Assembly (NCBI GenBank): GCA_020718085.1
Contig: DYDB01000001.1
Location: forward strand, 47,384 to 111,383
Source: Micavibrio sp.
GTDB taxonomy: Bacteria > Patescibacteriota > Minisyncoccia > Moranbacterales > GCA-2747515
Length of the DNA stretch: 64,000 bases
Direction: 5' to 3'
The position numbers and the translations under genes are program-made. Position 1 is the stretch's first letter; every line of letters starts with the position of its first letter. Shown here one piece after another: positions 8,864-43,134 of the stretch. The notes beneath the pieces are model-generated. The model saw only the letters and a program-made list of their open reading frames with translations, was not told where the DNA came from and searched no databases.

Positions 8864-9628
8864 ATGAGAAAATTGATGGCAGTTCTGGTAGTCTTGGTGT
8901 CATGTGCATTTGCGTCAAATTCAATTGCGGCTGTGCACGTCTATGGAAAATTGGAAAGGGTAGCGGCAGTCGTTGTGTATCTTGAGGGTCAAGGTGCACA
9001 AGATGTTTATGCCCATCCCACATCAGAGGTCATGGGAACGTACAAAGGAAAGCCATGGCCCGGTGTCAATGTCGCGACAGTGGAAAGCAGTGATGGATCC
9101 CAGGGTATTTTCGTTCCGGTTTCCAACAGCGTGCTTAAGGAAGGATTGTGCGATGATCAAAAGACGCTTCTGCGAACTTTTGTTCCACCGCCAGCTCCAG
9201 CAAAAAAAGCTCCGGCAAAGAATCTCTATGCTGGTACAGTGCCTGCAAGTTCCATGCGTACCATTCAGAGCGGTGACTCATGTGATGAGCGCCAATTTTC
9301 TGGTATGGTAACAAAGGGAGCGCTCGAGGCATCAGGCGGACAAACCGTCGATGTACTTGAGCTTCATAGACGTGCCGGAAAATCCATGGAATACAAGGCC
9401 AAACGCTTGCGAGTAGATGCATCGTCCGGTATTGCCATTCCGATGGTATGGTCCTCAGACGGAAGCTGTGTACGAAAGTACTCCGAGCAGTCCTTGACTG
9501 AGTCAGAGTTACGGACGCTTCTTTCAACCTCCGAATCGTTGCGGTCTACGACTGTAAGTGATATTGGGCGAAAAAACTTCGGTGCACATCTCACCGAAGG
9601 GGTATATCTGATATATCCGACCAAATAA
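8864..9628 (+). CDS. Secreted protein of unknown function (signal peptide), paralogue of 9812-10249
   Basis: Strong RBS aaggaggg. Signal peptide MRKLMAVLVVLVSCAFASNSIAA. The C-terminal about 110 aa align with the downstream ORF (FSGMVTK...KAKRLRV...GIAxP). Local GC is higher. Confidence 0.6.
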   Translation: MRKLMAVLVVLVSCAFASNSIAAVHVYGKLERVAAVVVYLEGQGAQDVYAHPTSEVMGTYKGKPWPGVNVATVESSDGSQGIFVPVSNSVLKEGLCDDQKTLLRTFVPPPAPAKKAPAKNLYAGTVPASSMRTIQSGDSCDERQFSGMVTKGALEASGGQTVDVLELHRRAGKSMEYKAKRLRVDASSGIAIPMVWSSDGSCVRKYSEQSLTESELRTLLSTSESLRSTTVSDIGRKNFGAHLTEGVYLIYPTK

Positions 9629-9688
9629 GGTGTAAAAAAAGAGCATTGGTCCCCATGTGGATCCGTGCTCTTTTCCTTTTTTCAGCTC

Positions 9689-9717
9689 TTGACAGCGAAG
9701 TGTTTTTGGTATATAAT
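9689..9717 (+). promoter_or_regulatory. Consensus sigma70-type promoter (TTGACA-17-TATAAT)
   Basis: TTGACA at 9689-9694, a 17-nt spacer, and TATAAT at 9712-9717. Lies about 95 nt upstream of the 9812 start. Confidence 0.6.
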
Positions 9718-9811
9718 ACATGGTTCTATGGTGATCGCAGTTCTGTGACACTGAGAATAGGGAATGGTTGTTCTTATTAATAATCATCGAAATCCCAAGG
9801 AGGAAACTGCG

Positions 9812-10249
9812 ATGAAAAAGACCCTGGTGTTGCTGGTTGGGATGTGCGTAGCAGGTTGGGTGGCGAGCGCTTCTGCGGTGGACTTCGTGCAAACGGATGG
9901 AGCGATCTGTAAGGATCGCCCGTTCTCAGGCATGGTCACCAAGGCTGTGCTTGAAGTCGGTCCTTCCGATGCAATCGAAGTGATCGATCGCGGCGCAGAG
10001 TTCAAGAAGCCGGCCGCACGCTTCAAGGCCAAGCGTATCCGAATTGAAGAGGACGGCATTGCGTATCCGCTCATGGATAGCAATGACAAAAAATGCGTCG
10101 CCACAACCGCATCTGCGATGTTTGAAGAGCGAGAAGTGGAAGCCGGACTTCTCATGCCTGGCGAAAAGCTTCGTGCCCTAAGCGTCACGGATGAAGGTCG
10201 CAACAAGATCGGCGAATACAAGACGGTCCAGGTCTGGATCATCGAGTAA
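9812..10249 (+). CDS. Small secreted protein of unknown function, paralogue of 8864-9628
   Basis: RBS aaggagg. Signal peptide MKKTLVLLVGMCVAGWVASASA. Shares the Cys-bracketed domain with the upstream ORF. Confidence 0.6.
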   Translation: MKKTLVLLVGMCVAGWVASASAVDFVQTDGAICKDRPFSGMVTKAVLEVGPSDAIEVIDRGAEFKKPAARFKAKRIRIEEDGIAYPLMDSNDKKCVATTASAMFEEREVEAGLLMPGEKLRALSVTDEGRNKIGEYKTVQVWIIE

Positions 10250-10261
10250 GCGCCGGTAACA

Positions 10262-10310
10262 AGGGTGTTGCAAGAATGCTATAATGGCAAACTTGCAACA
10301 CCCTTTTTTC
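10262..10310 (+). terminator. Rho-independent terminator
   Basis: agggtgttgcaag...cttgcaacaccct: a 13-bp perfect stem followed by TTTTTT. Confidence 0.8.
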
Positions 10311-10371
10311 ATTATAAAATATATCTATTTATCTTTTTTCAAACAGTAAGTAATGATCTAATAACATACAT

Positions 10372-10480
10372 GTCTTTGCGAGGAGCGGAACGAAATATAG
10401 CGACGAAGCAACCTTTGGTCATTGTATAAAAATATAACATATTAGTATGGGATTGCTTCGTTGTCTCTCCTCGCAAAGAC
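10372..10480. repeat. MITE-like repeat, family A (TIR gtctttgcgaggag...acgaagcaa / ttgcttcgt...ctcctcgcaaagac)
   Basis: A 109-bp element with about 30-bp terminal inverted repeats. Related copies lie at 49047-49204 and 58552-58649. Confidence 0.6.
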
Positions 10481-10631
10481 AACTAGATGAAAAGTTTTTT
10501 GGACTGCCACGAATACAAGTTATCCTTGCAGAGACAAAAAGGCGTCTTCGCGAAGTCGCTTTGCGACTGTGGCGAACTAGAGAACTTACATCATTTCACA
10601 TTTTGTACGTTAAATGCACTATCGAAATTGA

Positions 10632-10660
10632 TTGACAAAATATGAAAAATATGATATAAT
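10632..10660 (+). promoter_or_regulatory. Consensus sigma70-type promoter (TTGACA-17-TATAAT)
   Basis: TTGACA at 10632-10637, a 17-nt spacer, and TATAAT at 10655-10660. Lies about 135 nt upstream of the lipoprotein gene. Confidence 0.65.
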
Positions 10661-10797
10661 TGCAAGTTATGTGAATAGTTGTGTATAAAGATCAAAAACG
10701 CTTCTGTGCATAAGAATTTGTGCCCACAAGCGTGATCTTTATCAAAGATCACATGAGGTTTGTAAACTTAAAAATTTAGCCAATGGAGGTTGGTGAT

Positions 10798-11787
10798 ATG
10801 AGATACTACGTTATGTATGTGTTCTGTTGTCTCGTATTGTTGTCCGGTTGTGCCGCTGGAAACCAGGGTAAGGTGCCCAGTTTTGCAATGGTGCAGGGAG
10901 AACAAGGTGTTGCTCTGCCGCATCCCGATGCGGTGGAAGATAAAAACAAGGGGGAGACGCTCGTAACATTTACGGCGATCATTCCACCAGAATTTATTGT
11001 TGAAACACGGGGAACGCTCAAATCCGTGTATCCACTGGTGGGTGCACATATGAGTGATCCGAGCAAAAAGATCGAGGACGGCTTCTGCTATATTGAGGGA
11101 AGTAAAGCACTCTACAAAAATCCGTGGGGACTTATTCCCGCGGTATGTACTGTGACTGGTACAAAGAAGCAATTCGAGAAGTACCGTTGGACAATTGTCA
11201 ATCAAGATGGTGGTGTGTGGGCGACTTCGCCAACAGCAACCGCGATGATCGACGACAAGCAGTGGGACTTCATGAAATTCGAAAATGATTTCACACATCG
11301 CACGGAAGTTTTGACCAAGGTTGGTGATACTCTTTATGAGATCAACGAGTTCTGGAAGGAACGGTACCGTGAACTTGGGCAAGTTCCCAAGAACGATGTA
11401 TATGAGATCGTGATCGATCCTAAAAACCCAAAATGGCAAGCATATCGTGAGAAGCTTATCAAAGAGATGGGTTTTTCGATTGCATTGCCAAACGGTGAGC
11501 CTGTCGTGTCGACGGTTGACCGTGACAAGATGGTTGAGATCCTTGCTGAAGTACCACGTGTGACAAAATGGCAGAAGATGGTGTCACATTTGGGCGTGTC
11601 AATTGGCACGCCGGAGGTCATGGCGATCTCTGCTGCAAGCAGCATATTAAACGGCGGTATAGCTGCGTTGTTCGACAACCAGCTTTATACAAATACGGCC
11701 AGAGGTCTCGCACAGCGACGTGATTTTGCGCCGCATATGAGATTTTGGTACGATGAAGTTCAACAAGCAATGAGGAGCAGACAATGA
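10798..11787 (+). CDS. Lipoprotein of unknown function
   Basis: RBS ggagg. Signal peptide with lipobox LLSGC. Stop overlaps the start of the next ORF (ATGA). Confidence 0.6.
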   Translation: MRYYVMYVFCCLVLLSGCAAGNQGKVPSFAMVQGEQGVALPHPDAVEDKNKGETLVTFTAIIPPEFIVETRGTLKSVYPLVGAHMSDPSKKIEDGFCYIEGSKALYKNPWGLIPAVCTVTGTKKQFEKYRWTIVNQDGGVWATSPTATAMIDDKQWDFMKFENDFTHRTEVLTKVGDTLYEINEFWKERYRELGQVPKNDVYEIVIDPKNPKWQAYREKLIKEMGFSIALPNGEPVVSTVDRDKMVEILAEVPRVTKWQKMVSHLGVSIGTPEVMAISAASSILNGGIAALFDNQLYTNTARGLAQRRDFAPHMRFWYDEVQQAMRSRQ

Positions 11788-13181
11788 GAACACGAACTTT
11801 TCTATCGGCATTGTTGCTTTGTGTTGTGGGTGCTGTTAGTGCCTTCGCACAGAGCGGATCTGACACGTTGGGACTTTCTTCCAATGTTGTTTCAACACTC
11901 AACAAGTCTTCCGTATGTGCCACTGTGGTGCAGACGGGAGAGAAAATCACCTTTGCCAATGTTGGCGGGGTGAAAGTCGGCAAAACCGATAGTGGTATCT
12001 GGATGCAATTTATCGCATTCCAAGACAAACTCCCGTTCAAAGGAGCAAATGCCATTATCGCAAAAGGTGGAAACATTGAGCGCAAGGTTGTAGATGTCAT
12101 GCCCTGTGAAGGAAATGCATCAATTGCAATCGCATCAATGACCACCGAACCGGCACGCATTGCGCGACCGAATCGCCGAGTTGCGGAGGAGTTATCTGCA
12201 GCGCAAACCCAAAATGTGGGAGCGCAACGGCAGATCATGCCAAAAGCACTTCCGCAAGGCGTGGAAGAGGTTGAGCGTGAAGTTGCAAAACTTTTCCCGC
12301 AAGATGAAGTTGTAGAAGATAGTGGTCCAAAACCGGTCGTCGCTTACGATAGTAAGAACGCCGCCGGTGAAGGATCTGTCTTTGACAATCTGGACGCAAA
12401 GGTTACAGTTACACGCATGGGTTCCATGAGTGGCAGTGATCGCAAGCGTGATGGGAAAAGCATTACTGTTGAAGGTACGTATTATCAACCGGCGTGGGAT
12501 GGTAAGGGTCGCATAGGCGCCCATGCCACTTACACCAATGGCGAAAGTAATAGCAAAAACCCCGCCAATGGTCGTACAACAAATACAGATTATTGGAAGG
12601 TTGGCGCTGGTGGTGTATCTGAGTATGAGTTTGCCCCCAATACAGATTTCGTTGTAGAGGGTGATCTGCTCTATCAGGACACCAAGAGTCGTATTCCAGC
12701 AAAAAATTTCCGCTCCCATCAAACGGAGTGGCAAGCAGATCTCGATCTGTCGATTGCCAGCGATGACAATCGGAAAAATGGCTATGCCTTATTTCCGTAT
12801 TGGGAAGTCGGTGCCAGGGCAATCAAGTCATTCGGTGTGGATTATTCCGACACCAGCAATAAGAATGACTGGTATGATAACAGTCGCTACAGCGTCTACG
12901 GTAATGTGGATCTCTATGATTTCCATGCTGGAGATGTATGGCGATTCACTCCAACTGCCGGTTTGGAAGGTGGGTACATGGTTGGGAAAAGTGCTTCTTT
13001 CATAGAGCCTGGACTCAGCATCAAAACCGCCTACAAAGGCAAAGAGATCCTCGAGACGGGTGTTGACTGGCGATTCCTCTCCGGAGATAATCGTTGGAAC
13101 GCATTTGGTACGATCAGACCACTGCGCATTGGACGCATTCTGTGGGCCGAAGGCACCGCAGATTACGAATCAAAACGTTAA
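11784..13181 (+). CDS. Secreted beta-rich protein (outer-membrane beta-barrel-like), function unknown
   Basis: Signal peptide ...AVSAFAQS. The C-terminal half is rich in alternating aromatic/Gly residues (YxY, WxV). Translationally coupled to the lipoprotein. Confidence 0.5.
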   Translation: MRTRTFLSALLLCVVGAVSAFAQSGSDTLGLSSNVVSTLNKSSVCATVVQTGEKITFANVGGVKVGKTDSGIWMQFIAFQDKLPFKGANAIIAKGGNIERKVVDVMPCEGNASIAIASMTTEPARIARPNRRVAEELSAAQTQNVGAQRQIMPKALPQGVEEVEREVAKLFPQDEVVEDSGPKPVVAYDSKNAAGEGSVFDNLDAKVTVTRMGSMSGSDRKRDGKSITVEGTYYQPAWDGKGRIGAHATYTNGESNSKNPANGRTTNTDYWKVGAGGVSEYEFAPNTDFVVEGDLLYQDTKSRIPAKNFRSHQTEWQADLDLSIASDDNRKNGYALFPYWEVGARAIKSFGVDYSDTSNKNDWYDNSRYSVYGNVDLYDFHAGDVWRFTPTAGLEGGYMVGKSASFIEPGLSIKTAYKGKEILETGVDWRFLSGDNRWNAFGTIRPLRIGRILWAEGTADYESKR

Positions 13182-20535: not shown

Positions 20536-21300
20536 ATGGCGCGTTTGAAAACCGCAGAAAAAGAGAGTAAAAGTGAAGTTGTGGAAGCAGTAAATCCACG
20601 TAAGAACATTTTTGAGGCAATTGATCTGGAAAGTCTCGAATTGACAATGGCAGCACTCCTGAAAGCAGGTGTGCATTTTGGTCATCAAAAATCTCGTCGC
20701 AATCCTCGCATGAGTGAATACATTTATACAACACGAAATAATATTAATATTATCGATCTAGCAAAGACGGTTGAACGTTTGAAAGAAGCATTGGAGTTTA
20801 TTGTATCGATGAAAAAAAGTGGTAAACAGATTCTTTTCGTGGGCACAAAAAGACAAGCATATGATCTCGTGAGGGATATTGCAAAATATACCGGCAATCC
20901 ATTTGTTGTGGAAAGATGGCTCGGTGGGACGTTTACCAACTTTGGAAATATCCGTCGACGTACGCGATATATGACACGTTTGCAAGAACAAATTGCAAAA
21001 GGTGAACTGAAAAAATATACAAAGTTCGAACAGATGAAAAAGATCGAAGAGGCAGAAAAACTTGATCGTCGTATGGGAGGTATCGCAGAAATGCGTGATC
21101 TGCCTGGTGCAATATTTGTTACAGATGTTGAGGCAGACAATCTCGCAATTCGTGAGGCAATAGCAATGAACATTCCCGTAATTGCCCTTGTGGATACAAA
21201 TGTCAATCCAGCAGGTGTGACATATCCGATTCCTGCAAATGATGATGCAATTTCTTCGCTTACGATGATCCTTGCACATGTATGCAAATCACTTCGATAA
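20536..21300 (+). CDS. rpsB: 30S ribosomal protein S2
   Basis: AGVHFGHQKSRRNPRM and the rest of the length match S2. An rpsB-tsf pair follows. Confidence 0.95.
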   Translation: MARLKTAEKESKSEVVEAVNPRKNIFEAIDLESLELTMAALLKAGVHFGHQKSRRNPRMSEYIYTTRNNINIIDLAKTVERLKEALEFIVSMKKSGKQILFVGTKRQAYDLVRDIAKYTGNPFVVERWLGGTFTNFGNIRRRTRYMTRLQEQIAKGELKKYTKFEQMKKIEEAEKLDRRMGGIAEMRDLPGAIFVTDVEADNLAIREAIAMNIPVIALVDTNVNPAGVTYPIPANDDAISSLTMILAHVCKSLR

Positions 21301-21360
21301 GACGAATAGAGAAAAGATCCCAAAACGTAAAATGCAAAAAACTCTAAATTCAAAAATCAT

Positions 21361-21945
21361 ATGAGCACATTAGAACAAATCAAAAAGATCCGTGAGCAAA
21401 CCGGTGCAGGTATTATCGATGTGAAAAAAGCGCTTGATGAGGCAAAGGGTGATGAAACGAAAGCCATTGAGATCTTGCGTAAAAATGGACAGAGCAAGGC
21501 CTTGAAAAAAGCAGATCGAGATGCACGTGAGGGTGTGATCGGCATGTATGTGCACTCCAATCAAAAAATGGGTGCAATGGTGAAGGTTTTGTGTGAAACG
21601 GATTTTGTTGCTCGTAATGAAGATTTTCAAAAATTTGCAAGCGATATTGCAATGCATATTACAGCAAGTGCCCCACAGTGTTTGCGACCGGAGAGCGTGG
21701 ATGACGCATTCGTGGCAAAAGAGCGAGAGATCTGGACTGAGCAATTGAAAAATGAGGGTAAGCCTGCAGAGATCATGGATAAGATCATGGCAGGTAAAGA
21801 GCAAAAACTTCGTAATGAACTTGCACTTTTGACACAATCTTTTGTCAAAGAGCCGGATAAAACAGTGGAAGAATATCTTAATGAGCATATTGCCAAGATC
21901 GGTGAAAAGATCGAAATTGGTGAATTTGCGCGTTTTGCTTTCTAA
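21361..21945 (+). CDS. tsf: Elongation factor Ts (short form)
   Basis: N-terminal UBA-like IKKIREQTGAGIIDVKKAL, the EF-Ts signature. 194 aa. Confidence 0.9.
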   Translation: MSTLEQIKKIREQTGAGIIDVKKALDEAKGDETKAIEILRKNGQSKALKKADRDAREGVIGMYVHSNQKMGAMVKVLCETDFVARNEDFQKFASDIAMHITASAPQCLRPESVDDAFVAKEREIWTEQLKNEGKPAEIMDKIMAGKEQKLRNELALLTQSFVKEPDKTVEEYLNEHIAKIGEKIEIGEFARFAF

Positions 21946-22681: not shown

Positions 22682-22754
22682 GCCACTTTAGCTCAGTTGG
22701 TAGAGCATCGGTTTTGTAAACCGCAGGTCGTCAGTTCGAGTCTGACAAGTGGCT
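22682..22754 (+). tRNA. tRNA-Thr (anticodon UGU)
   Basis: Cloverleaf folded by hand: acceptor gccactt/aagtggc, anticodon loop tttgtaa with U33-UGU-A37, short variable loop, T-loop ttcgagt. CCA is not encoded. Confidence 0.75.
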
Positions 22755-22868
22755 CAAGACAGTAGAAAGTTTGTAAAGTTAAAAGTTATGAAGGAAGGAT
22801 CTGTGTGTATATTACACACTTATTATCTTTTGACTTTATGAACTTTTCAACTTTGTGACTGTTAAATT

Positions 22869-22951
22869 GGGTCGGTGGCAGAGTGGTCAAATGCACCTGA
22901 CTGTAAATCAGGCGTCTTCGGACTTCGGGGGTTCAAATCCCTCCCGGCCCA
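22869..22951 (+). tRNA. tRNA-Tyr (anticodon GUA)
   Basis: Anticodon stem-loop cctga/ctgtaaa/tcagg. The long variable arm (cgtcttcggacttcg) is typical of bacterial Tyr. T-loop ttcaaat. Confidence 0.8.
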
Positions 22952-23019
22952 CAATACAACCAAGAGAGCGGATGTGGCCGATTACTGTAAAGTGTCGGCT
23001 TTATCTGTAAAAGGCATAT

Positions 23020-23092
23020 GCCTAGATAGCTCAGTCGGTAGAGCACATCCATGGTAAGGATGAGGTCGCCGGTTCAATCCCGGCTCTAGGCT
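23020..23092 (+). tRNA. tRNA-Thr (anticodon GGU)
   Basis: Acceptor gcctaga/tctaggc. D-arm gctcagtcggtagagc. Anticodon loop atggtaa (GGU). T-loop ttcaatc. Confidence 0.85.
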
Positions 23093-23173
23093 CAGAATAA
23101 TAGTGTATAATAGAGAACATGGGAGTCTGTTGTGCGAGGACAGGCGGGCCTGTCCACCGGAGTTAAAACGTAG

Positions 23174-23244
23174 GCGGGTGTAGTTTAGTGGTAGAACGAG
23201 GGTCTCCAAAACCCTTAGTGGGAGTTCGATTCTCTCCACCCGTG
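23174..23244 (+). tRNA. tRNA-Trp (anticodon CCA)
   Basis: Anticodon stem-loop agggt/ctccaaa/accct (CCA). T-arm gggag/ttcgatt/ctctc. The acceptor pairs with a G1-U72 wobble. Exact ends are +/-2 nt. Confidence 0.75.
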
Positions 23245-23251
23245 CATACAA

Positions 23252-23286
23252 AAAACAGCTTCTTCTGGGGGGGGGCTGTTTTTGTT
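23252..23286 (+). terminator. Rho-independent terminator after the tRNA cluster
   Basis: aacagc ... G-rich loop ... gctgttttt followed by gttt. Confidence 0.5.
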
Positions 23287-23368
23287 TATCTTGATAGTAT
23301 AATAGCTGAAACCATGTTATGCTCAATAGACAAAAAATACGGTGTAATGAAGTAGATTTCAGAAAAAT

Positions 23369-23998
23369 ATGCAGAGTAATCTGAAAAAAATATTAGATGA
23401 TTTTAAGGACAAGCGATCTATTTATGAAGAGTTCTGTTTGGCGATGTATAAATTCTTGGATAGCATGCTTGTTATTGATGGTTGCAAATACCAGATATTT
23501 TATAGGATCAAAGAATTTGACAAACTTGAAGAAAAAATTATACGTAAAGAAAAAGAGGGGATCGTCTATACGAACCTTGAAGAATTGGAAGATTTGGCGG
23601 GTCTTCGAATCCTATTTTATCTCGAGTCAGATAAGGATAAATTTGTGAAAAAATTACTATCGGAATTGACGGGAGATGTTACTATTAAAAATCATAAAAA
23701 ATTATCCGGCTATGAAGCAACACACATCATTACAAGTTTTGGAGAAAAAAGGATCAGTTTGAGCGAATACAGCAAGTTTGAGGGATTGAAATGTGAAATA
23801 CAATTGACATCCATCTTGCATCATGCGTGGTCGGAAATTGAACATGACATGATCTACAAAGACACTTTGGGAGTCAAGAATAGTAAAGTGAAAAGTGTTT
23901 TTATAAAAAAAGAGATGAAAAAGATCCTATCAAATTATCTCATTAAGGCTTCCACTGAGCTGGACAATCTGGTCAAAAAAATTAAAAAAAGGAAATAA
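23369..23998 (+). CDS. RelA/SpoT-domain nucleotidyltransferase (small alarmone synthetase-like; possible toxSAS-type toxin)
   Basis: Motifs EDLAGLRILF, GYEATHII and EIQLTSILHHAWSEIEHDMIYK align with the RelQ/RelP synthetase motifs (DIAGLRI, GYRSxHL, EIQIRTxxMxxWAxxEHxxxYK). 209 aa. Lies in an AT-rich, codon-shifted island. Confidence 0.7.
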   Translation: MQSNLKKILDDFKDKRSIYEEFCLAMYKFLDSMLVIDGCKYQIFYRIKEFDKLEEKIIRKEKEGIVYTNLEELEDLAGLRILFYLESDKDKFVKKLLSELTGDVTIKNHKKLSGYEATHIITSFGEKRISLSEYSKFEGLKCEIQLTSILHHAWSEIEHDMIYKDTLGVKNSKVKSVFIKKEMKKILSNYLIKASTELDNLVKKIKKRK

Positions 23999-24119
23999 AA
24001 TGGCTTCACCCGTGCAGATAGGAATAGAACCAAAATTTGAGGCTAGGGAAGCCTTTTTTTGGTTTCAATCTTTTAGGATAAGAATGGAAGAGTGGAAATT
24101 TTTATGATAGAGTTTAATT

Positions 24120-25220
24120 ATGAAAGCAAAAGTTCATAAAATTGAAGACTTTGGTTATGATCCATTTTTTGAATCCAATCGTGTAAAACTCGGACTGGAT
24201 GTTTTTCATGTGGCTCGAGTGATCTCTGAACAAAAGGGAATTTATAAGGTTAAAAATGCCAATGGTGAATATTTGGCAAAAATAACCGGAAAACAAATTT
24301 TTAAAGCCTCTTCTAAGGAAGATTATCCGTCTGTGGGTGATTGGGTGGCAATTTCTGAATTGGAAGTGCATAAAGCAATGATCCGTAGTATATTACCGAG
24401 GAGAACAGTGATGAAGAGGAAATGCAGTGGTAAAAAAAATGAAACCCAAATAATAGCAACGAATATTGACGTGGCCTTTGTCATTGAATCAGTTGATAGG
24501 GACTATAATTTGAATCGATTTGAAAGATATTTTGCCATAGCGAATGATGGGGGCATAAAACCAGCTATCATATTGAACAAAGTAGATCTGATCTCCAAAG
24601 AAGAATTATATGCAAAAATTTCCCAAATAAAAGACAGATTCAAAGATGTTGAAGTCATTCCAACTAGCGCTGTGACGGATGAAGATCTGGATGAATTAAG
24701 GGGATATATAAAAAAGGGTAAAACGTATTGTTTTCTAGGTTCCTCCGGAGTGGGAAAATCTTCTTTGATAAATAAACTGATTGGTAGTGGGAGTGAGATA
24801 AAAACTGGAGACGTCGGTTTACGTTCCGGGAGAGGAAAGCATGTAACTACAACGAGAGAAATGTATTTTTTGAAAAATGGTGGCATTGTAATAGATACTC
24901 CCGGGATGCGAGAGGTGGGGATGACTGACACAACTGCTGGTGTAGATAATTTATTCGATGAGATCACAACTCTCGCCAAGAAATGTAAATTTATCGACTG
25001 TGATCATATTCATGAACCTAAATGCGAAGTTTTAGTTGCGCTAAAAGCAGGCCTGTTGGACAAAGAAAAGTATGCCAATTACATTCGATTAAAAAAAGAG
25101 TCTGAACATTATGAGATGACTCAACGTGAAAAAAAAGAAAAAGATCGAAAATTTGGTAAATTTATGAAAAATGCCAAGAAGGATTTGAAAAAGTATAAAA
25201 ACAAAAATTATAGTGTGTAA
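24120..25220 (+). CDS. rsgA: RsgA/YjeQ-type circularly permuted GTPase (ribosome small-subunit biogenesis GTPase family)
   Basis: N-terminal OB-like region. G4 NKVDL precedes G1 GSSGVGKSSLIN. GRGKHVTTTRE and IDTPGMRE motifs. C-terminal zinc finger CKFIDCDHIHEPKC. Lys-rich tail. Confidence 0.85.
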   Translation: MKAKVHKIEDFGYDPFFESNRVKLGLDVFHVARVISEQKGIYKVKNANGEYLAKITGKQIFKASSKEDYPSVGDWVAISELEVHKAMIRSILPRRTVMKRKCSGKKNETQIIATNIDVAFVIESVDRDYNLNRFERYFAIANDGGIKPAIILNKVDLISKEELYAKISQIKDRFKDVEVIPTSAVTDEDLDELRGYIKKGKTYCFLGSSGVGKSSLINKLIGSGSEIKTGDVGLRSGRGKHVTTTREMYFLKNGGIVIDTPGMREVGMTDTTAGVDNLFDEITTLAKKCKFIDCDHIHEPKCEVLVALKAGLLDKEKYANYIRLKKESEHYEMTQREKKEKDRKFGKFMKNAKKDLKKYKNKNYSV

Positions 25221-25346: not shown

Positions 25347-25661
25347 ATGTTCTGGCGAAAGCACAAAAATATACATTTAATTTCAGCAGTCTTTCTTGGT
25401 TGTTTATTTTTGTCTGGGTGTGACGATTCAAACAATCGACTAGAGGAAATTGAACAAGCAAGAGAAATGGGCTACGAGATGGGAATGGAGGAGGGTTATA
25501 GTGTTGGTATAGATGATGTAAAATCCGGACTTGTGTCAATTGAGGATACTGAGATTTGCTTGGATTACTATGAATTAGGCTATCAAGATGCTATCACTGA
25601 TATCGAGAAATACGGAATAACAAGAGTAAAGAATGAAGATTTGCCAAGAGAAGTTCAATAA
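25347..25661 (+). CDS. Small acidic lipoprotein, hypothetical
   Basis: Signal peptide with lipobox FLSGC, followed by an acidic E/G/Y-rich 80-aa region. Confidence 0.45.
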   Translation: MFWRKHKNIHLISAVFLGCLFLSGCDDSNNRLEEIEQAREMGYEMGMEEGYSVGIDDVKSGLVSIEDTEICLDYYELGYQDAITDIEKYGITRVKNEDLPREVQ

Positions 25662-25745
25662 TGATTATGAATGCAAAAAATTGTTAAAAATATTTTTGAC
25701 TAAATTTATTTTTTTAGTAAAATCCTGTTGAGTATTTGAAAAAAT

Positions 25746-26384
25746 ATGACCGAAGAAGAATATAAGAATAGATTTGAAAAGTTATATCAACTTCTAACAA
25801 GAGCTCATTTGTGTTTTTTTGTTTGGAAGGGTCTTAAAAATGTAAAATATCAACCTCAATTTGACAGAGATAAAAATTTTTGGAGTGCTGTCGTTCCTTC
25901 CCTAGAGTCATCGTGGCTTCAATCTTTAGCTAATATTTACGAAGAATCAGATTACAGCAGAAAGGATAAAATTATATCGGTATATTCATTGATAAATAAT
26001 CAAAAAGATGTAGAAAGAAAGGTGAGAGCGGAAGTTATTATTAATCAGAATCAATCCATAATTAAAAACATTTCAATTCTTAGGAATAATCAGTTAGCTC
26101 ATTATAATGCCAATCATTTATTAAACCCAAAAGAGTTATTGGAAAAATTTCCTGTGAAATATGGGGAAGTGGAAAGATTGCTAGAAATAACTGAAGAACT
26201 ATTACGTTGTCTGCACCCCGAAAACAATCATAGTTTTTCGTTTGAGGGATTTGATAAGGAATCACAACGGGATTCAACTTTAATTATGGATAGGATTGAG
26301 TATTATCTAAAGCAGGAAAAGAAACACTATGAGAAAATGAAAGATGAAAATAAGTATGTTCATTTTCCGCCTCAAAAAGACTGA
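25746..26384 (+). CDS. Hypothetical protein with an Rx5H (HEPN-like) motif; candidate Abi-type protein
   Basis: 212-aa all-helical-looking ORF. LRNNQLAHYNANH contains R-x5-H in a predicted helix, as in HEPN RNase families (Rx4-6H). No other motifs. Confidence 0.5.
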   Translation: MTEEEYKNRFEKLYQLLTRAHLCFFVWKGLKNVKYQPQFDRDKNFWSAVVPSLESSWLQSLANIYEESDYSRKDKIISVYSLINNQKDVERKVRAEVIINQNQSIIKNISILRNNQLAHYNANHLLNPKELLEKFPVKYGEVERLLEITEELLRCLHPENNHSFSFEGFDKESQRDSTLIMDRIEYYLKQEKKHYEKMKDENKYVHFPPQKD

Positions 26385-26539
26385 TTATTATCAAATTTTT
26401 TCTTAAATCGGATGTGTATACATTCGTTTTTTTCATAAAAATATCCCTAAAAACATTTATCACATCGTACAGATACAAAAAAGAGATTTTATGCAATCTC
26501 TTTTCGTGCTGAGAATTATGATATAATCACAGAATTCAT

Positions 26540-27109
26540 ATGCAAAACACTATCGAAAATAAAACTATTCAAAAAGAAGATTGGTCTGGAAAAAAACTAG
26601 GATCATTTGAAATTTCTGACTGTACATTCAACGGATGTGATTTTACGGAAACTGATTTTTCCGGAACGAAGTTCATTGATTGTATCTTCGATGGATGTAA
26701 TTTCTCGAACTCAAAAATATTAAATTGCAGTTTTTGCGACGTTACTTTTAAGGAATGTAAAATAAGTGGTGTGGTCTTTGGTGAAATAAATAAATTCTTA
26801 CTTTCTTGGAAATTTTATGATTGTGCCATAGATCTTTGCAGTTTCAGTATGTTGGATATCAAAAACTCCGAGTTTATTGCATGTGAGATCTACGAAACTG
26901 ATTTTGTGAACACTGATCTTAGTGAGTCTAATTTCTCACAATCTGATCTGAGGGGGAGTAAATTTCAAGATACAAATTTAAGTAAAGCTAATTTTGTGGG
27001 AGCAATAAATTATTTTATAGATCCTACAGCCAATAAGATCACAAAAGCGAGATTTTCATCACCGGAAGTGTTAGCTCTGCTTGCGGGTTTTGATATAACC
27101 ATTGAATAG
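26540..27109 (+). CDS. Pentapeptide-repeat protein (Qnr/MfpA-like fold)
   Basis: Tandem A(D/N)(L/F)xx pentapeptides throughout (CTFNGCDFTETDFSGTKFIDCIFDGCNFSNSKILNCSF...SDLRGSKFQDTNLSKANFVGA). Confidence 0.75.
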   Translation: MQNTIENKTIQKEDWSGKKLGSFEISDCTFNGCDFTETDFSGTKFIDCIFDGCNFSNSKILNCSFCDVTFKECKISGVVFGEINKFLLSWKFYDCAIDLCSFSMLDIKNSEFIACEIYETDFVNTDLSESNFSQSDLRGSKFQDTNLSKANFVGAINYFIDPTANKITKARFSSPEVLALLAGFDITIE

Positions 27110-27140
27110 ATTGAGAGCTTGCGCAATTATCATTATTTCT

Positions 27141-27198
27141 GTCATTCCGACCCTGCCTACCGGCAGGCAGGCTTCGACTTTGCTCAGGATGACAAGTG
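27141..27198. repeat. MITE-like repeat, family B (best copy)
   Basis: gtcattccgaccctgcctaccggcaggcaggcttcgactttgctcaggatgacaagtg. Internal palindrome cctgcctaccggcaggcagg. Near-identical to 6358-6416. Confidence 0.6.
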
Positions 27199-27249
27199 CG
27201 TAATTTTTGAGAGTATCAGTTTAGAATAGGGCTTATCTTATTTTTTTAA

Positions 27250-27284
27250 CATAAAAACAAAAAGAACGGTCGTGTGCCGTTCTT
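27250..27284 (-). terminator. Rho-independent terminator for the MarR gene
   Basis: agaacgg-tcgtgtg-ccgttct stem with a T-run on the minus strand (reverse complement of ataaaaacaaaa). Confidence 0.6.
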
Positions 27285-27296
27285 TGTATACATGAT

Positions 27297-27755
27297 CTAT
27301 TGCCTAAGGTTTTTCCCAATTTCTATGAGTAATGCTGAAAACTCATCCATTTTTTTTGTTTTGTTCTTTGGAATGACATCTTCACAAAAGATCTCCATGC
27401 GTTCAATGCCTTCTTCCAGCTTCATTTTTCCTCCAGGTGCGAGTACTACTTGACTGACGCGAGCATCGTGCGCATGTGCTTCTTTTTTAATGAGGCCGAT
27501 CTTTTCCATCGGAAGGAGCAGGCGAGTGATGCCGGAGGCGGTTAGACCCACTTTCTCTGCCAAATCGATACGACGCATAGTGCAATTTGTTGCCTGACTA
27601 AGGTGGTAGAGAATGATAAATTCATTAAATCCAATACCATTCAAACGTGCGTCTAAGCGACGATTTAATTCGGTCTGAAATTTTGCAATATCAATGAGAA
27701 ACTTCGCGGATGAATTAATTTTGTACATATTATTGATTAATAGTTGATATGTCAA
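27297..27755 (-). CDS. MarR-family transcriptional regulator
   Basis: Winged-HTH region LSQATNCTMRRIDLAEKVGLTASGITRLLLPMEKIGLI. 152 aa. Confidence 0.8.
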   Translation of the reverse strand: MTYQLLINNMYKINSSAKFLIDIAKFQTELNRRLDARLNGIGFNEFIILYHLSQATNCTMRRIDLAEKVGLTASGITRLLLPMEKIGLIKKEAHAHDARVSQVVLAPGGKMKLEEGIERMEIFCEDVIPKNKTKKMDEFSALLIEIGKNLRQ

Positions 27756-27948
27756 ACATATATCAAATTGTAATGTGTGTCAAGCGATGCAAAAATGTGA
27801 GGTGTGCAAAACAGTGGAATACATATGAGAACATTGACAAAATCGTGAAAAAGTGTAGAATTGTCGATTGGCGTTATTTTACAAAAGAATAGATATTATA
27901 AATGATATTCAGTCATTTTTTCACAATAAACTCAGGAGGAGTACGGCA

Positions 27949-29613
27949 ATGACGGAGACAAAAGATAATACCGGTATGAGCGAAGAATGTGCGAATTTTT
28001 TTGAGATCGCATTTGAGCATCATCCAATGCAGACGATCGCCGTGAATCTTGAGGGAGTGATCGTTGCAGTAAATCGTGCAAAACGAAATTCGGGGGATCG
28101 CGCGGCGGAAAAGGGCATGAAAATGTATGTGGATTATGCTGCGGGTCACGATATTGATATGTTTGCGGAATTGCTCAAAGTGATGCAAGGTACGGAAACA
28201 GTAACGTATCCCATGATGGCATATCGGGATAAGATCCTTGATATTACCATCACGCCCACACCATATGGTGCGCTCATTATTTCAGCAGATGTGACACAGC
28301 GTATCATTACAGAGCAAAAGCTTAAAAGAAGTGAGGAGCGGTTTCGATTGCTCGTGGAACAGATCTCATGCATGGCCATTCAGGGATATAAATTGGATGG
28401 TACGATCACATATTGGAACAAGGCATCAGAAAAACTGTATGGTTATCATGCTGATGAAGTGATTGGTGACAATTTGCTTGAGACGATTATTCCTCCAGGT
28501 ATGCGAGAAGATGTAAAACTGGGCATGGATTTTATGATCAAAAGCGGGGAGCCAATTCCCTCTGGCGAATTGGCGCTTATGCGCAAAGATGGGACGCTTG
28601 TTACGGTATTTTCCAGTCATGCACTTCTGTGTGATCATAATGGAGATTCGGAATTGTTTTGTGTGGATATCGATCTCACAGAACAGAAAAAAGCGGAGGA
28701 CCTACTGCGAAAAAATGAAGCACTTCTGCGCGCGCTCACAGAGGCGGCACAAGATGCGATCATTGCGATGAATGAAGAGGGTAAGATCTTTCTGTGGAAT
28801 CCAGCTGCACAACGCATGCTTGGATATTCTTGCGGGGAGGTTATAGGACAGCCGTTGCATGAGTGTATTGCACCAGAAGATTATCGCGAGATGTCAAAAA
28901 AAGGCATTGAGCAGTTCATTCAGACTGGTGAAGGTGCGGCAATCGGAAAAACTACTGATCAAAGAGCGTTACATAAAGATGGACATGTGATCGATGTGCA
29001 ATTATCTCTCTCTCGTCTTCCCATGGAAAATGGTTGGGGATCTGTAGGTATTTTGCGGGATGTAACTGAACAAAAATTGGCGGAGCGGGCATTGCGCGAA
29101 AGTGAAGAGCGCTTGCGAGTTGTGAGCATGACGGATCAATTGACGGGCCTGTACAATCGGTGGCATTTCAGTCATGAGTTACAGCGAGAAGTGGATCGTT
29201 CAGAGCGGTATGGACAACCGTTGTCAGTGATCATGTTCGACATTGACGACTTTAAACAGTTTAATGAAATATACGGACATGCGGCAGGAGATCGTGTTTT
29301 GCAAATTTTGGGACACGTTGTGAAAGGTAGTATGCGAAAGAGCGACATTGCATGTCGTATTGGCGGGGAGGAATTCTTTATCATTTTGCCAATGACCTCA
29401 AGATCTGTTGCGCAAACAATCGCATTTCGGATCAGTACAAGCCTTAAGATGCAATCTTTAGACTTTGCACTTGATAAGAAGATCACCTTCAGTTGTGGCG
29501 TATGTCAATATACCTCTGGACAAAGTCCGGATGATCTCTCTCGTCGTGTCGATCAACTGATGCGACAAGCAAAGAGTGAAGGCAAGGATCGGATCATTTG
29601 TGATCAGACGTGA
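27949..29613 (+). CDS. PAS-domain diguanylate cyclase (GGDEF)
   Basis: Two to three PAS S-box segments (ITYWNKASEKLYGY..., IFLWNPAAQRMLGY...). C-terminal GGDEF with RIGGEEFFIILP and RYGQPLSVIMFDIDDFKQFN. Confidence 0.85.
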   Translation: MTETKDNTGMSEECANFFEIAFEHHPMQTIAVNLEGVIVAVNRAKRNSGDRAAEKGMKMYVDYAAGHDIDMFAELLKVMQGTETVTYPMMAYRDKILDITITPTPYGALIISADVTQRIITEQKLKRSEERFRLLVEQISCMAIQGYKLDGTITYWNKASEKLYGYHADEVIGDNLLETIIPPGMREDVKLGMDFMIKSGEPIPSGELALMRKDGTLVTVFSSHALLCDHNGDSELFCVDIDLTEQKKAEDLLRKNEALLRALTEAAQDAIIAMNEEGKIFLWNPAAQRMLGYSCGEVIGQPLHECIAPEDYREMSKKGIEQFIQTGEGAAIGKTTDQRALHKDGHVIDVQLSLSRLPMENGWGSVGILRDVTEQKLAERALRESEERLRVVSMTDQLTGLYNRWHFSHELQREVDRSERYGQPLSVIMFDIDDFKQFNEIYGHAAGDRVLQILGHVVKGSMRKSDIACRIGGEEFFIILPMTSRSVAQTIAFRISTSLKMQSLDFALDKKITFSCGVCQYTSGQSPDDLSRRVDQLMRQAKSEGKDRIICDQT

Positions 29614-29620
29614 AAATAAA

Positions 29621-29662
29621 AATCGGTCTCCATGAATTAATGGAGGCCGATTTTCTTTTTTA
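29621..29662 (+). terminator. Rho-independent terminator
   Basis: aatcggtctcca-tgaattaa-tggaggccgatt: a 12-bp stem with one G-U pair, followed by ttttcttttttatt. Confidence 0.85.
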
Positions 29663-29761
29663 TTGACATTTTATGCATATAATGAAACGATGTTGACACA
29701 AGTTGTTCGTTTACAGAATGGTAGAACAATAAAAAACATGAAGCAGTCAAGGAGGTATGGC

Positions 29762-30817
29762 ATGAAGCAGGGTAAGCGGTGGGGTGATGTGATCATTTTT
29801 ACAGGTTTGGATAACGATTCATTGGCAGAAGGTATGTGTCTCAAATTGCGCGAATACCTTGGGGAAGACCCGCAAAAGGGACATATCAGATTTGGTAAAT
29901 TTGATGATATCGAGATCAAAGACTCCTTTCCTGATTTCGAGGATATCCGCGGGAAAACGGTTGTATTCTTTGAATGTCTTAAATCTCTGGAAACGACTGT
30001 GCGTCTCTTGCAATTGTGTTGGGCGGCGAAGTATCTATATGGTGCAAAATATGTCATTATCGCAACATCCTTCTTGCATTATCGTCGGCAAGATCATCCG
30101 GAGAAAATTCATGAGATCCATCGCAATAGATGGTTGATAGAACAAATGAAACACAATGGCGTAGATCATTTGATCGTAGCAACACCTCATTCTGACCAAA
30201 CGCGAAAAAATTGTGAGGAGGTTGGCATTGCGTTTCGCGAAGTTGATTTTACGGAAGCGTTCGCAAGTGTATGCAAGCCGTTGCTTCCGGAAAAAGGAGA
30301 AAATAAAAAGGCGGTTGTTTTTGCTCCTGATGAAGGTTCAATTGCAAGGGCGATCGTATTTGCACAACATCTTGATGTTGACGTTTTGTTCCAACTTAAA
30401 GATCGCGGTCACAACAACGAAGTGGCGATCTTGGAGGCAGATCAAGAAATGATCGACCAGATCATTGCAAAGTACGGCTATGAACGTCTGTATTTTGCGA
30501 CGCATGATCTGATCAAAGATGCAATCGTGATCATGATCGATGATGAGGTGACAACCGGCACTACAGCCAACAAGCAAGCAAAGAATTTGTTGAAATGGGG
30601 TGCTGCCATAATCATGTTGTTTGTGACGCATCCAGTTTGCAGTAATCAGTGGATGGAAAAATTGATGGATGGTGCACCATTTGGCAAGATCTGTTTTACC
30701 AATACGATCTTTCGAGGCAAGGAGCATCGTACAGGTGGTAGTGTGCATGATGTTTCAGCGGCGGGACTCATGGCATCAGGTGTCTATCGCGTTTTGCGAC
30801 AATTGTTCAATCGGTAG
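29762..30817 (+). CDS. prs: Ribose-phosphate pyrophosphokinase (PRPP synthetase)-like
   Basis: N-terminal Pribosyltran_N-like region. PRTase motif VIMIDDEVTTGTT. RBS aaggagg upstream of the ATG at 29762. Confidence 0.65.
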   Translation: MKQGKRWGDVIIFTGLDNDSLAEGMCLKLREYLGEDPQKGHIRFGKFDDIEIKDSFPDFEDIRGKTVVFFECLKSLETTVRLLQLCWAAKYLYGAKYVIIATSFLHYRRQDHPEKIHEIHRNRWLIEQMKHNGVDHLIVATPHSDQTRKNCEEVGIAFREVDFTEAFASVCKPLLPEKGENKKAVVFAPDEGSIARAIVFAQHLDVDVLFQLKDRGHNNEVAILEADQEMIDQIIAKYGYERLYFATHDLIKDAIVIMIDDEVTTGTTANKQAKNLLKWGAAIIMLFVTHPVCSNQWMEKLMDGAPFGKICFTNTIFRGKEHRTGGSVHDVSAAGLMASGVYRVLRQLFNR

Positions 30818-41841: not shown

Positions 41842-42372
41842 ATGCAAAGAAGAACATATTCTTGGATGAATCCATCAGTCGAAGTGCGAGAAACATTAGA
41901 GACGGGCAGAGGGATTTTTGCAATAAAAAATATTAGTAAGGGAGATTTGATCTCTGTGTTTGGTGGGTATGTGATAACACGTGCTGAGGAGCTTGAGCTG
42001 CCTGATGAATTTAATGACGAAGGTGTTCAAATTAGTGAGGATTTAATTTTGGGCATAAAAAGTGAAGCGGATCTTGAAGATGCGAGCTATATTAATCACA
42101 GTTGTAATCCAAACGCTGGATATAATGGACAAATATTTCTTGTGGCGATGCATGATATCAAAAATGGTGAGGAGATTACATTTGATTATGCGATGTGCTT
42201 ATATCAGTCAGAAAATGAAAAAAAGTATTCTTTTAAATGTTTCTGTGGAGCATTAAATTGTCGGAAAATTATTACAGACAATGATTGGAAAATTCCTGAG
42301 TTACAAAAAAAATATGATGGCTATTTCCAATGGTTTTTACAAAAGAGGATTAATGATAAGAATGATAACTAG
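41842..42372 (+). CDS. SET-domain protein (putative protein lysine methyltransferase)
   Basis: GRGIFA...NHSCNPNAGY...EEITFDY. Post-SET cysteines CFCGALNC. 176 aa. AT-rich, codon-shifted region. Confidence 0.8.
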   Translation: MQRRTYSWMNPSVEVRETLETGRGIFAIKNISKGDLISVFGGYVITRAEELELPDEFNDEGVQISEDLILGIKSEADLEDASYINHSCNPNAGYNGQIFLVAMHDIKNGEEITFDYAMCLYQSENEKKYSFKCFCGALNCRKIITDNDWKIPELQKKYDGYFQWFLQKRINDKNDN

Positions 42373-42378
42373 TTGTGT

Positions 42379-43134
42379 ATGAATGTCTATACGAACATCG
42401 ATGATGCTTCTTTGGAAATAAAAAACAGATGGAATAATGATGGTTTGAAAAAAAAAGTTTTGGAATATTTTGATGGAGATTTGCCTAAAACATTTTGTGA
42501 GCCACGTGCTGTACTAAGTCGCAATATTGCCACTCCGGATATTGAATGTGTGCATTTTTTTAACTTGGCAAAAAAGATTGGATTATTGCCAATTATTTGT
42601 GAAGGTGTTGGTGATAAATTTTCATCTGCGAGTTCTGATAAAGTTGGGCTTGTAAAATTAAATTTTTTTGACGGTTATGATAAAAACCATCAGTTGTTAA
42701 GACATCATAAAAAAATTATTGACATACCTTCAAATGATGGTAAAAAGTTCAATGTAATTAATACATTATGGGGTGAAAATCTAGTCGATTTTCACCATCG
42801 AATATTAAAAGAATATTTACATGAAAGTGTTGACTTATTTGATGATTTTGACTGGTTTCATAAAATTGGCATGAAAACAACAATTGGTGAATATTACAAA
42901 AATTTTTTTGTTTTTTTTGTATGTCATGGGGTATTATTTGAAAATTTTGTCACTGATGCAGAGGAATTGGAATTCTTTGATAAAATAGTTCAACCAGCAT
43001 TTGAATATATCGAAAGTTATTTTGGTGTAAAACCTCTCATTGTGGAACTTGCTCCTCATGATCAAGCTAATAACCCATATTGGTGGTGCTATCCGTCAGA
43101 TGTAGAAAAATATATTTTAAAAGTAGATATGTAA
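42379..43134 (+). CDS. Hypothetical protein (no recognisable domain) immediately downstream of the SET gene
   Basis: ATG 7 nt after the SET stop. About 251 aa, soluble, His-rich patches (HHKK, FHHRI). Confidence 0.5.
   Translation: MNVYTNIDDASLEIKNRWNNDGLKKKVLEYFDGDLPKTFCEPRAVLSRNIATPDIECVHFFNLAKKIGLLPIICEGVGDKFSSASSDKVGLVKLNFFDGYDKNHQLLRHHKKIIDIPSNDGKKFNVINTLWGENLVDFHHRILKEYLHESVDLFDDFDWFHKIGMKTTIGEYYKNFFVFFVCHGVLFENFVTDAEELEFFDKIVQPAFEYIESYFGVKPLIVELAPHDQANNPYWWCYPSDVEKYILKVDM

Follow-up and report, generated by a model that had tools for sequence, protein, structure and literature searches.

Adjacency of a long-form rsgA gene and a small alarmone synthetase-like gene downstream of tRNA-Trp in a Moranbacterales contig

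The 64,000 nt stretch of contig DYDB01000001.1 analysed here (hereafter the window) carries an rsgA gene at position 24120–25220, preceded on the same strand, at a distance of 121 nt, by a gene with a RelA/SpoT synthetase domain (23369–23998), called SAS below for small alarmone synthetase. GTPases of the RsgA family bind the alarmone (p)ppGpp, as illustrated by the S. aureus RsgA-ppGpp structure 6zhl (PMC8579695, PMC6912228), and the locus raises the question of whether the two genes belong together. The original prediction, made from the sequence of the window, proposed a regulatory couple or a toxin with a target-mimic immunity protein, inside a foreign-looking island. Both genes were correctly recognized, the RelA/SpoT-domain gene included, and the proposed pairing failed every test that was run. 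The adjacency is probably fortuitous and due to accretion at a tRNA hot spot, because the closest relatives have a different cargo in front of rsgA while keeping the succession of S2, EF-Ts, TPR protein, tRNA cluster and rsgA.

Neighbourhoods of the two genes in relatives

Loci encoding relatives of the window RsgA were collected from GTDB species representatives (31 loci), which do not include the genome of the window, and from metagenomes (40 loci), with 52–77% identity, and corresponded to 49 non-redundant loci. For the 31 genome loci, tblastn with the window SAS and a hidden Markov model built from 120 SAS-family proteins both detected no RelA/SpoT open reading frame (ORF) at a distance of up to 8–10 kb from rsgA, and none was found near rsgA in the 40 metagenome loci by tblastn with the same query. 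Reciprocally, no RsgA was present in the eight other genomic contexts of the SAS (51–92% identity), which displayed eight different sets of neighbours. Clustering of the ORFs located within 6 kb of rsgA revealed no neighbour family conserved beside it, as no family was present in more than 7 of 64 loci. Adjacency across independent lineages, as would mark a dedicated SAS-RsgA pair, was not observed, and the linkage was restricted to this genome and its near-identical strains. A conserved SAS-RsgA module is not supported by these comparisons of sequences, and no dedicated pair of products is apparent.

The closest relatives with enough flanking sequence were L017 (Moranbacteria RIFOXYA12_FULL_35_19, RsgA 77% identical to that of the window) and L053 (73%). 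The same order as in the window was found in both: S2, EF-Ts, a TPR protein, a tRNA cluster, a variable segment and rsgA. In L017, the order starts upstream with L31 on the minus strand. The tRNA cluster downstream of S2 and EF-Ts consisted of Thr/Tyr/Thr/Trp in L017 and L014, and Thr/Tyr/Trp were detected in L053. The RsgA proteins of the window, L017 and L053 formed one clade in a neighbour-joining tree. The cargo between tRNA-Trp and rsgA differed: the window has the SAS gene there, L017 an unrelated ORF of 313 aa and L053 a group of four ORFs. Because rsgA occupies the same syntenic position in L017 and L053, it is a resident of the window lineage and not a recent arrival, and its position is inherited within this lineage. 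The window sequence matched a contig from a groundwater metagenome, and the closest named homologues of the window proteins were labelled Moranbacteria, Parcubacteria or Paceibacterota, all within Patescibacteria, or Candidate Phyla Radiation (CPR).

The features of this part of the window are the following:
22682–23245, plus strand, tRNA cluster, anchor of the variable array (ARAGORN; Rfam tRNA scores of 61–70 bits)
22682–22755, plus strand, tRNA-Thr(tgt) (ARAGORN, Rfam)
22869–22952, plus strand, tRNA-Tyr(gta) (ARAGORN, Rfam)
23020–23093, plus strand, tRNA-Thr(ggt) (ARAGORN, Rfam)
23174–23245, plus strand, tRNA-Trp(cca) (ARAGORN, Rfam)
23235–23246, plus strand, tRNA-Trp 3' end TCCACCCGTGCA, first copy of a direct repeat (repeat search)
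23251–23283, plus strand, terminator-like hairpin followed by a T-run, directly after tRNA-Trp (consensus scan)
23290–23368, plus strand, promoter-like leader accompanying the SAS gene (conserved with L002 and L011)
23369–23998, plus strand, small alarmone synthetase-like gene with a RelA/SpoT synthetase domain only (209 aa; PF04607)
24005–24016, plus strand, second copy of the tRNA-Trp 3' end TTCACCCGTGCA, putative attachment-site scar between the SAS unit and the rsgA unit (repeat search)
24039–24066, plus strand, terminator-like hairpin or hairpins followed by a T-run, between SAS and rsgA (consensus scan)
24103–24113, plus strand, -10-like box TATGATAGAGT, 7 nt 5' of the rsgA ATG, putative promoter element (conserved in L017 and L053)
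24120–25220, plus strand, rsgA, long-form RsgA GTPase (366 aa; Pfam, NCBIfam, phmmer, alignment, AlphaFold2 and Foldseek)

The SAS unit was bracketed by the 10-mer CACCCGTGCA, which occurred twice in the 64 kb compared to 0.06 occurrences expected and could be extended to 11 matching bases out of 12. The second copy lay just after the SAS stop codon. In L017, an 8 nt segment of its own tRNA-Trp 3' end, GCCCGTGC, was present 88 nt before rsgA, and a hairpin was found between cargo and rsgA at the equivalent position in both L017 and L053. The -10-like box before the rsgA ATG, TATGATAGAGT in the window, read TGTGATAGAAT in L017 and TATGATAGAAT in L053. This conserved TGATAGA(A/G)T box was located approximately 7–17 nt before the start codon (24103–24119 in the window), and this region of the sequence suggests that the rsgA mRNA may be leaderless or have a very short leader. 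On the SAS side, a stretch of approximately 80 nt 5' of the ATG was conserved with L002 and L011, the SAS genes of which have unrelated neighbourhoods. Terminators and promoters were identified as consensus matches only, and the hairpins and -10 boxes are thus putative functional elements. The Rfam search of the 22.4–28 kb region returned the four tRNAs only, with no riboswitch or leader. A 35-aa ORF called between SAS and rsgA in the ENA record of the contig overlapped the repeat and the hairpin in a stretch poorly conserved with L017, and was treated as spurious.

Proposed accretion of genes behind tRNAs

The position of rsgA behind a tRNA gene was a recurrent situation. A co-oriented tRNA was present at most 3.5 kb upstream of rsgA in 14 of 32 non-redundant loci and downstream in none of 39 (Fisher test, 2e-6), whereas, from the density of tRNAs in the remainder of these loci, an upstream tRNA would be expected in 4% of cases (binomial p ~7e-12). 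The upstream tRNA varied with the lineage and at least seven species were represented (Trp, Asn, Met-Met-Asp, Ser, Thr, Arg-His, Lys-Cys). The RsgA proteins of L018 and L051, 82.8% identical, are encoded behind different tRNAs (Asn and His, respectively). At L049 and L050, the RsgA proteins were 97.8% identical, one gene being directly behind tRNA-Asn and the other behind a degenerate copy only.

Partial tRNA copies were counted as exact k-mers with 5'-half, middle and reverse-complement controls. This count replaced a blastn-short search in which L071 alone passed E<0.05. Downstream, the tRNA 3' end recurred as exact matches of 9 nt or more at 11 intergenic positions and four positions within ORFs, the intergenic segments accounting for 15% of the sequence. 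The controls showed a different distribution, with one intergenic and 10 ORF matches for the tRNA 5' end, and no intergenic and 16 ORF matches for the tRNA middle. In L071, a 22 nt copy of the tRNA-Ser 3' end (95% identity) was located 23 nt before rsgA. Partial copies bracketed rsgA in L026 (three copies), L031 (two copies) and L051. In the latter locus, rsgA, an HD/DUF4202 gene and small ORFs come after tRNA-His, and a module of approximately 85 nt lies behind each of them. The four modules (368–450, 1544–1630, 2183–2270 and 3153–3240) showed a mean column identity of 84% and were composed of a sequence similar to the tRNA-His 3' half, a terminator and a -10-like box. The L051 arrangement resembles a cassette array devoid of integrase. 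The 39 ORFs present between tRNA and rsgA in the relatives included DEAD-box helicases, HNH and GIY-YIG homing endonucleases and an AbiEii-like nucleotidyltransferase, and most had no Pfam match. In addition, PD-(D/E)XK and GIY-YIG endonuclease genes were located between individual tRNAs of the Thr-Tyr-Thr-Trp cluster in relatives (L017 7888–8283; L014 3663–3959) and not in the window. In L014 (4785–5052), a 14 nt exact repeat of the tRNA-Trp 3' end was present approximately 180 nt past that tRNA, and the SAS gene was there also approximately 1.1 kb from tRNA-Trp.

A comparable organization was described in the tycheposon-driven islands of Prochlorococcus, where each insertion is set off from the next by a partial tRNA and the older elements are displaced outward as newer ones arrive (10.1101/2020.12.28.424599). 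As in these islands, flexible genes adjoin a full-length tRNA, partial copies lie between units, and variability is highest beside the tRNA. In contrast to them, the window and the examined loci showed no integrase or other mobility gene, the CPR units are often single genes, and the repeat in L051 is an 85 nt or so module with a terminator and a -10-like box. Of the marks of a tRNA-linked additive island, the partial copies and the variation in cargo were thus observed, and a cognate integrase was not. The rsgA arrays behind tRNA genes resemble the additive islands of other streamlined bacteria.

We propose that rsgA, together with a terminator and a promoter-like sequence before it, makes up a self-contained unit of the variable array that extends past tRNA-Trp. 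Another self-contained unit (approximately 23247–24016), made of the promoter-like leader, the SAS gene, the partial tRNA-Trp 3' end and a terminator, would have entered between tRNA-Trp and the already resident rsgA unit. In this model, insertions occur by recombination at the tRNA 3' end and pile up there, the older residents being pushed outward and the repeats representing integration scars. Where modules of approximately 85 nt exist, homologous recombination after DNA uptake would be a possible route of insertion.

Several points weigh against this model. The repeat in the window is short, with the 10 exact bases and 11 of 12 mentioned above. It could belong to the SAS 3' region and not be an integration scar, because in L002 the SAS stop codon is also followed by a GC-rich motif of loose similarity, with no tRNA-Trp nearby. 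No integrase or recombinase was found among the ORFs of the window between 21.9 and 32 kb, among the 39 ORFs between tRNA and rsgA in relatives, or in the L051 array. Since terminators and promoters are consensus matches, read-through co-transcription of SAS and rsgA is possible. RsgAs being known (p)ppGpp targets, any alarmone synthetase could also have a general physiological link with RsgA.

The RsgA and SAS proteins

The 366-aa product of the 24120–25220 ORF is an intact, genuine RsgA, a member of the known family of late-stage 30S-maturation GTPases. It matched Pfam RsgA_GTPase PF03193 (E=8e-47, 159.7 bits for a cut-off of 30) and NCBIfam TIGR00157, "ribosome small subunit-dependent GTPase A" (157.1 bits, cut-off 100), and was under the cut-off of two lineage-specific NCBIfam models (182 vs. 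360 and 118 vs. 483). Pfam RsgA_N was below its cut-off (19.1 vs. 27 bits). E. coli RsgA (PDB 2ykr) was aligned by phmmer over the GTPase and zinc-finger domains (E=6.9e-34), the alignment ending at approximately residue 327 of 366, and the alignments with the S. aureus and T. maritima RsgAs started at residues 31 and 53, respectively. The AlphaFold2 model, made from 46 homologues (mean pLDDT, the predicted local distance difference test, of 75.4), showed the beta-strands of an OB-fold beta-barrel at residues 30–101 (pLDDT ~75–94), the GTPase core and a long C-terminal helix at residues 335–360. The top 15 Foldseek matches of this model in the PDB were all RsgA/YjeQ/YloQ (best E=4.3e-22), the best ones being RsgA on the 30S subunit.

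All the hallmarks announced by the original prediction, OB fold, permuted GTPase motifs and Cys/His zinc finger, were therefore recovered, and together with the scores they place the protein in the RsgA family. The motifs are in the order G4 (NKVD, 153–156), G1 (GSSGVGKS, 207–214), G2 (T243/T244) and G3 (DTPG, 259–262). G1 and G4 matched in 120 of 120 nearest homologues and the core residues were invariant in the 46-sequence alignment. The Cys3His zinc finger, C289-x4-C294-x-H296-x5-C302, was also present in all 120, in a part of the model where the pLDDT is low (38–59). The sub-features of the gene, all on the plus strand, are:
OB fold, approximately aa 30–101
24576–24587, G4
24738–24761, G1
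24834–24860, G2 region
24894–24905, G3
24984–25025, zinc finger
25128–25217, basic C-terminal helix

The Lys-rich tail reported from the sequence exists (14 K/R among the last 32 residues). It is not unusual, as each of the 120 nearest homologues has it, the last 30 residues containing 11.1 K/R on average, and its core F-G-K-F...K was invariant or almost so in the 46-sequence alignment. The window RsgA belongs to a long-form subfamily, in which the OB fold is preceded by an N-terminal motif, L-x-x-(F/L)-G-(Y/W)-x-x-F-F, and the zinc finger is followed by a basic C-terminal helix. Both are subfamily traits, since they are present in the CPR homologues and in the long-form RsgAs of other phyla. 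E. coli RsgA/YjeQ, B. subtilis CpgA/YloQ and S. aureus RsgA share with the window protein the OB fold, the permuted G4-G1-G2-G3 GTPase and the C-x4-C-x-H-x5-C zinc finger. E. coli RsgA differs by its low identity (~29%), and by the absence of the N-terminal L..FGY..FF segment and of the basic C-terminal helix of approximately 30 residues. The long-form RsgAs of Listeria, Fulvitalea and Nostoc were aligned over the full length (residues ~3–349), including the N-terminal motif and the basic tail, with different tail sequences and identities of 37% (Listeria), 44% (Fulvitalea axinellae pFA3) and 38% (Nostoc PCC 7120 plasmid gamma). By homology, the OB and zinc-finger domains of the window RsgA would mediate its binding to the immature 30S subunit, from which the protein would depart after GTP hydrolysis, and the basic C-terminal helix would add rRNA contacts. 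The nucleotide-pocket motifs are kept and the structure 6zhl was among the structural matches of the model (E=8.6e-15). The protein could bind (p)ppGpp and be competitively inhibited by it, as other RsgAs are. Such general binding neither requires nor explains the linkage with SAS. No experimental study of the long-form subfamily, and nothing relevant on an RsgA paralogue or "RsgA2", was found in the literature search. A reading as a known defence GTPase was rejected, PADLOC giving chance-level P-loop matches only (mad8, 6.5e-4; LeoBC, 0.0099).

In the 209-aa SAS protein, the RelA_SpoT domain PF04607 was the only domain (E=3.5e-13, 50.2 bits, cut-off 27), with no HD or regulatory domains. A synthetase domain over threshold and conserved catalytic motifs define it as a small alarmone synthetase. 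Residues R46, K48, K56, D75, G78, R80, G114, Y115, H119, E143, Q145, H152 and W154 were kept in 114–120 of 120 aligned family members. The closest solved relatives were RelQ/RelP (2be3, 6fgk, 6ewz, 5dec). The R-x-K...K, D-x-x-G-x-R, G-Y-x-x-x-H and E-x-Q motifs of the Firmicutes RelQ/RelP align with those of the window SAS. The matches are however distant (27–37 bits), and in the E-I-Q-x-R-T motif, at SAS residue 147, a Thr replaces the Arg in 79 of 120 family members including the window SAS, 38 having R. Judging from this alignment, the substrate or product of the Thr-type family could differ from that of RelQ/RelP. The PADLOC candidate PDC-S33 was a weak partial match (2.9e-11, profile positions 41–175 of 349), the window protein lacking the C-terminal half, and was not retained. 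Phage carriage was also considered and rejected: in the phage collection, RsgA matches did not exceed 37% identity and corresponded to unannotated "Listeria phage" fragments of 3.5–11 kb (H1–H4), and SAS gave one weak Vibrio phage match.

A pentapeptide-repeat gene was considered as the true partner of SAS, and discarded. It was found within 5 kb of SAS in four of nine contexts, all from close Moranbacteria, in varying order and distance, and this proximity is probably residual synteny. The corresponding 189-aa proteins (64–73% identity) are encoded at 26540–27109 in the window, 894–1457 in L008, 7101–7667 in L011 and 5291–5854 in L013. A group of genes encoding a PAS-PAS-GGDEF diguanylate cyclase, a divergent synthetase-like protein of the phosphoribosyl pyrophosphate (PRPP) type and a 3D-domain protein (window 27868–30817) was syntenic, in another order, in the SAS-bearing relative L013 (8160–11025).

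Possible transfer of rsgA, rival explanations and surrounding genes

Presence of rsgA (K06949) was reported in 83.9% of non-CPR genomes and in only 6.1% of 505 CPR genomes, whereas rel was present in 74.9% of the latter (PMC12641178, Supplementary Table). The hosts of the window-type RsgA, in contrast to those of the known RsgA/YjeQ/CpgA, are thus bacteria in which the gene is rare. No second rsgA was found in the 64 kb window. Where the gene is present, it is unusually conserved. The identity between the window and L017/L053 was 73–77% for RsgA compared to 51–53% for S2, 61% for EF-Ts and 58% for L31 (L017 only; window 24120–25220 vs. 20536–21945). In most bacteria the reverse is expected, RsgA being less conserved than S2, EF-Ts and L31. 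The median pairwise RsgA identity over all loci was 61%. The set of ribosome-assembly GTPases is reduced in the CPR, rsgA being among those rarely present.

One member of the clade was found outside the CPR. P0014 (L096, 254–10130), a CPR-type RsgA 72% identical to that of the window and 87% to P0087, is encoded by a gene of 42% GC in a non-CPR host of 62–66% GC, on a 3.3 Mb contig with TonB and extracytoplasmic function (ECF) sigma genes. The gene lies in a 7.9 kb island (35–56% GC) with PDDEXK_1, SDH_protease, DUF4365 and HTH genes, bounded by a 472 bp direct repeat (96%) of the comM 3' end. On these sequence features, P0014 appears to be a cross-phylum transfer of a Patescibacteria-type RsgA. 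In other phyla, the long form was encoded on many plasmids, including a Nostoc conjugative plasmid, and one Listeria record, as well as one chromosome-sized Bacillus record filed in the plasmid collection, had two matching places each. The L. monocytogenes long-form gene (346 aa) adjoins pnp/rpsO. The long-form rsgA of other phyla is often accessory. Because of the rarity of the gene in CPR, the low-GC island of P0014, and the second and plasmid copies in other phyla, the RsgA clade of CPR is considered as an accessory gene capable of transfer. The foreign-looking island of the original prediction holds in part: a variable array does extend past tRNA-Trp, and rsgA is rare in CPR and belongs to a clade with signs of mobility. 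It does not hold for a recent acquisition, the gene being a resident at the syntenic place shared with L017 and L053.

How, then, should the proximity of SAS and rsgA be read? In a regulatory couple, the SAS would make (p)ppGpp or a related alarmone acting locally and specifically on the adjoining RsgA, and the genes would be kept together for that purpose. The (p)ppGpp binding by RsgA-family GTPases, the co-orientation of the two genes 121 nt apart and the conserved catalytic residues of the SAS are in agreement with this reading. The absence of linkage in 49 of 49 non-redundant RsgA loci and in eight of eight other SAS contexts, the terminator-like hairpin and separate promoter-like sequences between the genes, and the other cargo held by the nearest relatives at the place of SAS make it very unlikely, and the neighbourhood study of SAS subfamilies does not mention GTPases (10.1101/575399). 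Some SAS subfamilies are toxins with adjacent antitoxins, the toxSAS, organized in conserved bi- or tricistronic pairs that often overlap (10.1101/575399). The window SAS resembles the toxSAS modules FaRel, FaRel2, PhRel, PhRel2 and CapRel in its size (~200 aa), its lone RelA/SpoT synthetase domain and the conservation of the catalytic motifs, and the weak PDC-S33 match points in the same direction. That it would be such a toxin, with RsgA as decoy or antitoxin, is nevertheless the most improbable reading, with hardly any chance of being correct. The nine SAS contexts corresponded to nine neighbour sets with no kept partner, SAS and rsgA do not overlap and are separated by 121 nt and a terminator-like hairpin, none of the catalytic and zinc-finger residues expected of an active enzyme is missing from RsgA, and the protein is 67–77% identical to 119 other listed homologues, with no SAS neighbour at any of their examined loci. 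The idea of an alarmone synthetase wired to the GTPase that it targets, or of a new pair of toxin and decoy, thus fails the comparison with relatives, and the locus alone gives no ground to pursue it.

Accretion at the tRNA hot spot probably accounts best for the adjacency. In a further rival explanation, rsgA would be a vertically inherited housekeeping gene with a chance neighbour, its place behind tRNAs reflecting selection for co-expression with stable-RNA genes and not mobility. The synteny with L017 and L053, the intact catalytic features and the GC content of rsgA, which generally tracks that of the host (mean difference of -1 point), agree with this view. Operons joining tRNAs and the mRNA of a translation factor do exist, such as thrU-tyrU-glyT-thrT-tufB in E. 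coli, and also count in its favour. We consider it unlikely in view of the terminator-like hairpins between tRNA and rsgA, the seven or more upstream tRNA species with related RsgAs (L018, L051) behind different ones, the partial tRNA copies bracketing rsgA in L026, L031 and L051, the clade member between comM repeats in a GC-rich genome, and the scarcity of rsgA in CPR (PMC12641178). A broader proposal, which we regard as plausible but with somewhat less than an even chance, is that the Patescibacteria long-form rsgA is a horizontally exchanged accessory gene, a terminator-promoter-gene unit in integrase-poor arrays behind many tRNAs, separated by partial-tRNA modules that also carry a terminator and a promoter, and reaching non-CPR hosts, the window SAS being a like cassette. 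If true, this implies that streamlined episymbionts exchange even genes of the translation machinery.

The codon usage of rsgA, originally described as AT-rich and island-like, gave little support to a foreign origin. Its GC content (35.5%, z=-1.39) and that of its third codon positions (GC3, 30.5%, z=-1.28) were inside the spread of 65 window ORFs, and the GC3 equalled that of rpsB (30.2%) and rpmE (30.9%) of the window. The SAS gene had a low GC (32.5%, z=-2.1) with an average GC3 (38.1%), so that the low GC reflects the amino-acid composition. The genes downstream of rsgA, identified by Pfam/NCBIfam, are:
25347–25661, plus strand, lipoprotein-like gene
25746–26384, plus strand, AbiU2/HEPN gene
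26540–27109, plus strand, pentapeptide-repeat protein gene
27297–27755, minus strand, MarR gene

The genes of this variable stretch (25347–27755) were absent 3' of rsgA in L017 and L053. The AbiU2-type HEPN gene, of defence type (PF18734, E=6.9e-12), showed the lowest GC of the region (31%, GC3 26%). Elsewhere in the window, a low-GC patch (41842–43134, 30–34%) contained a SET-domain protein gene (PF00856, E=2.1e-15) and a 253-aa ORF with no Pfam match, followed by a histidine kinase gene. A high-GC block (8864–13181, 48–53% compared to a window mean of 41%) contained four ORFs with no Pfam match.

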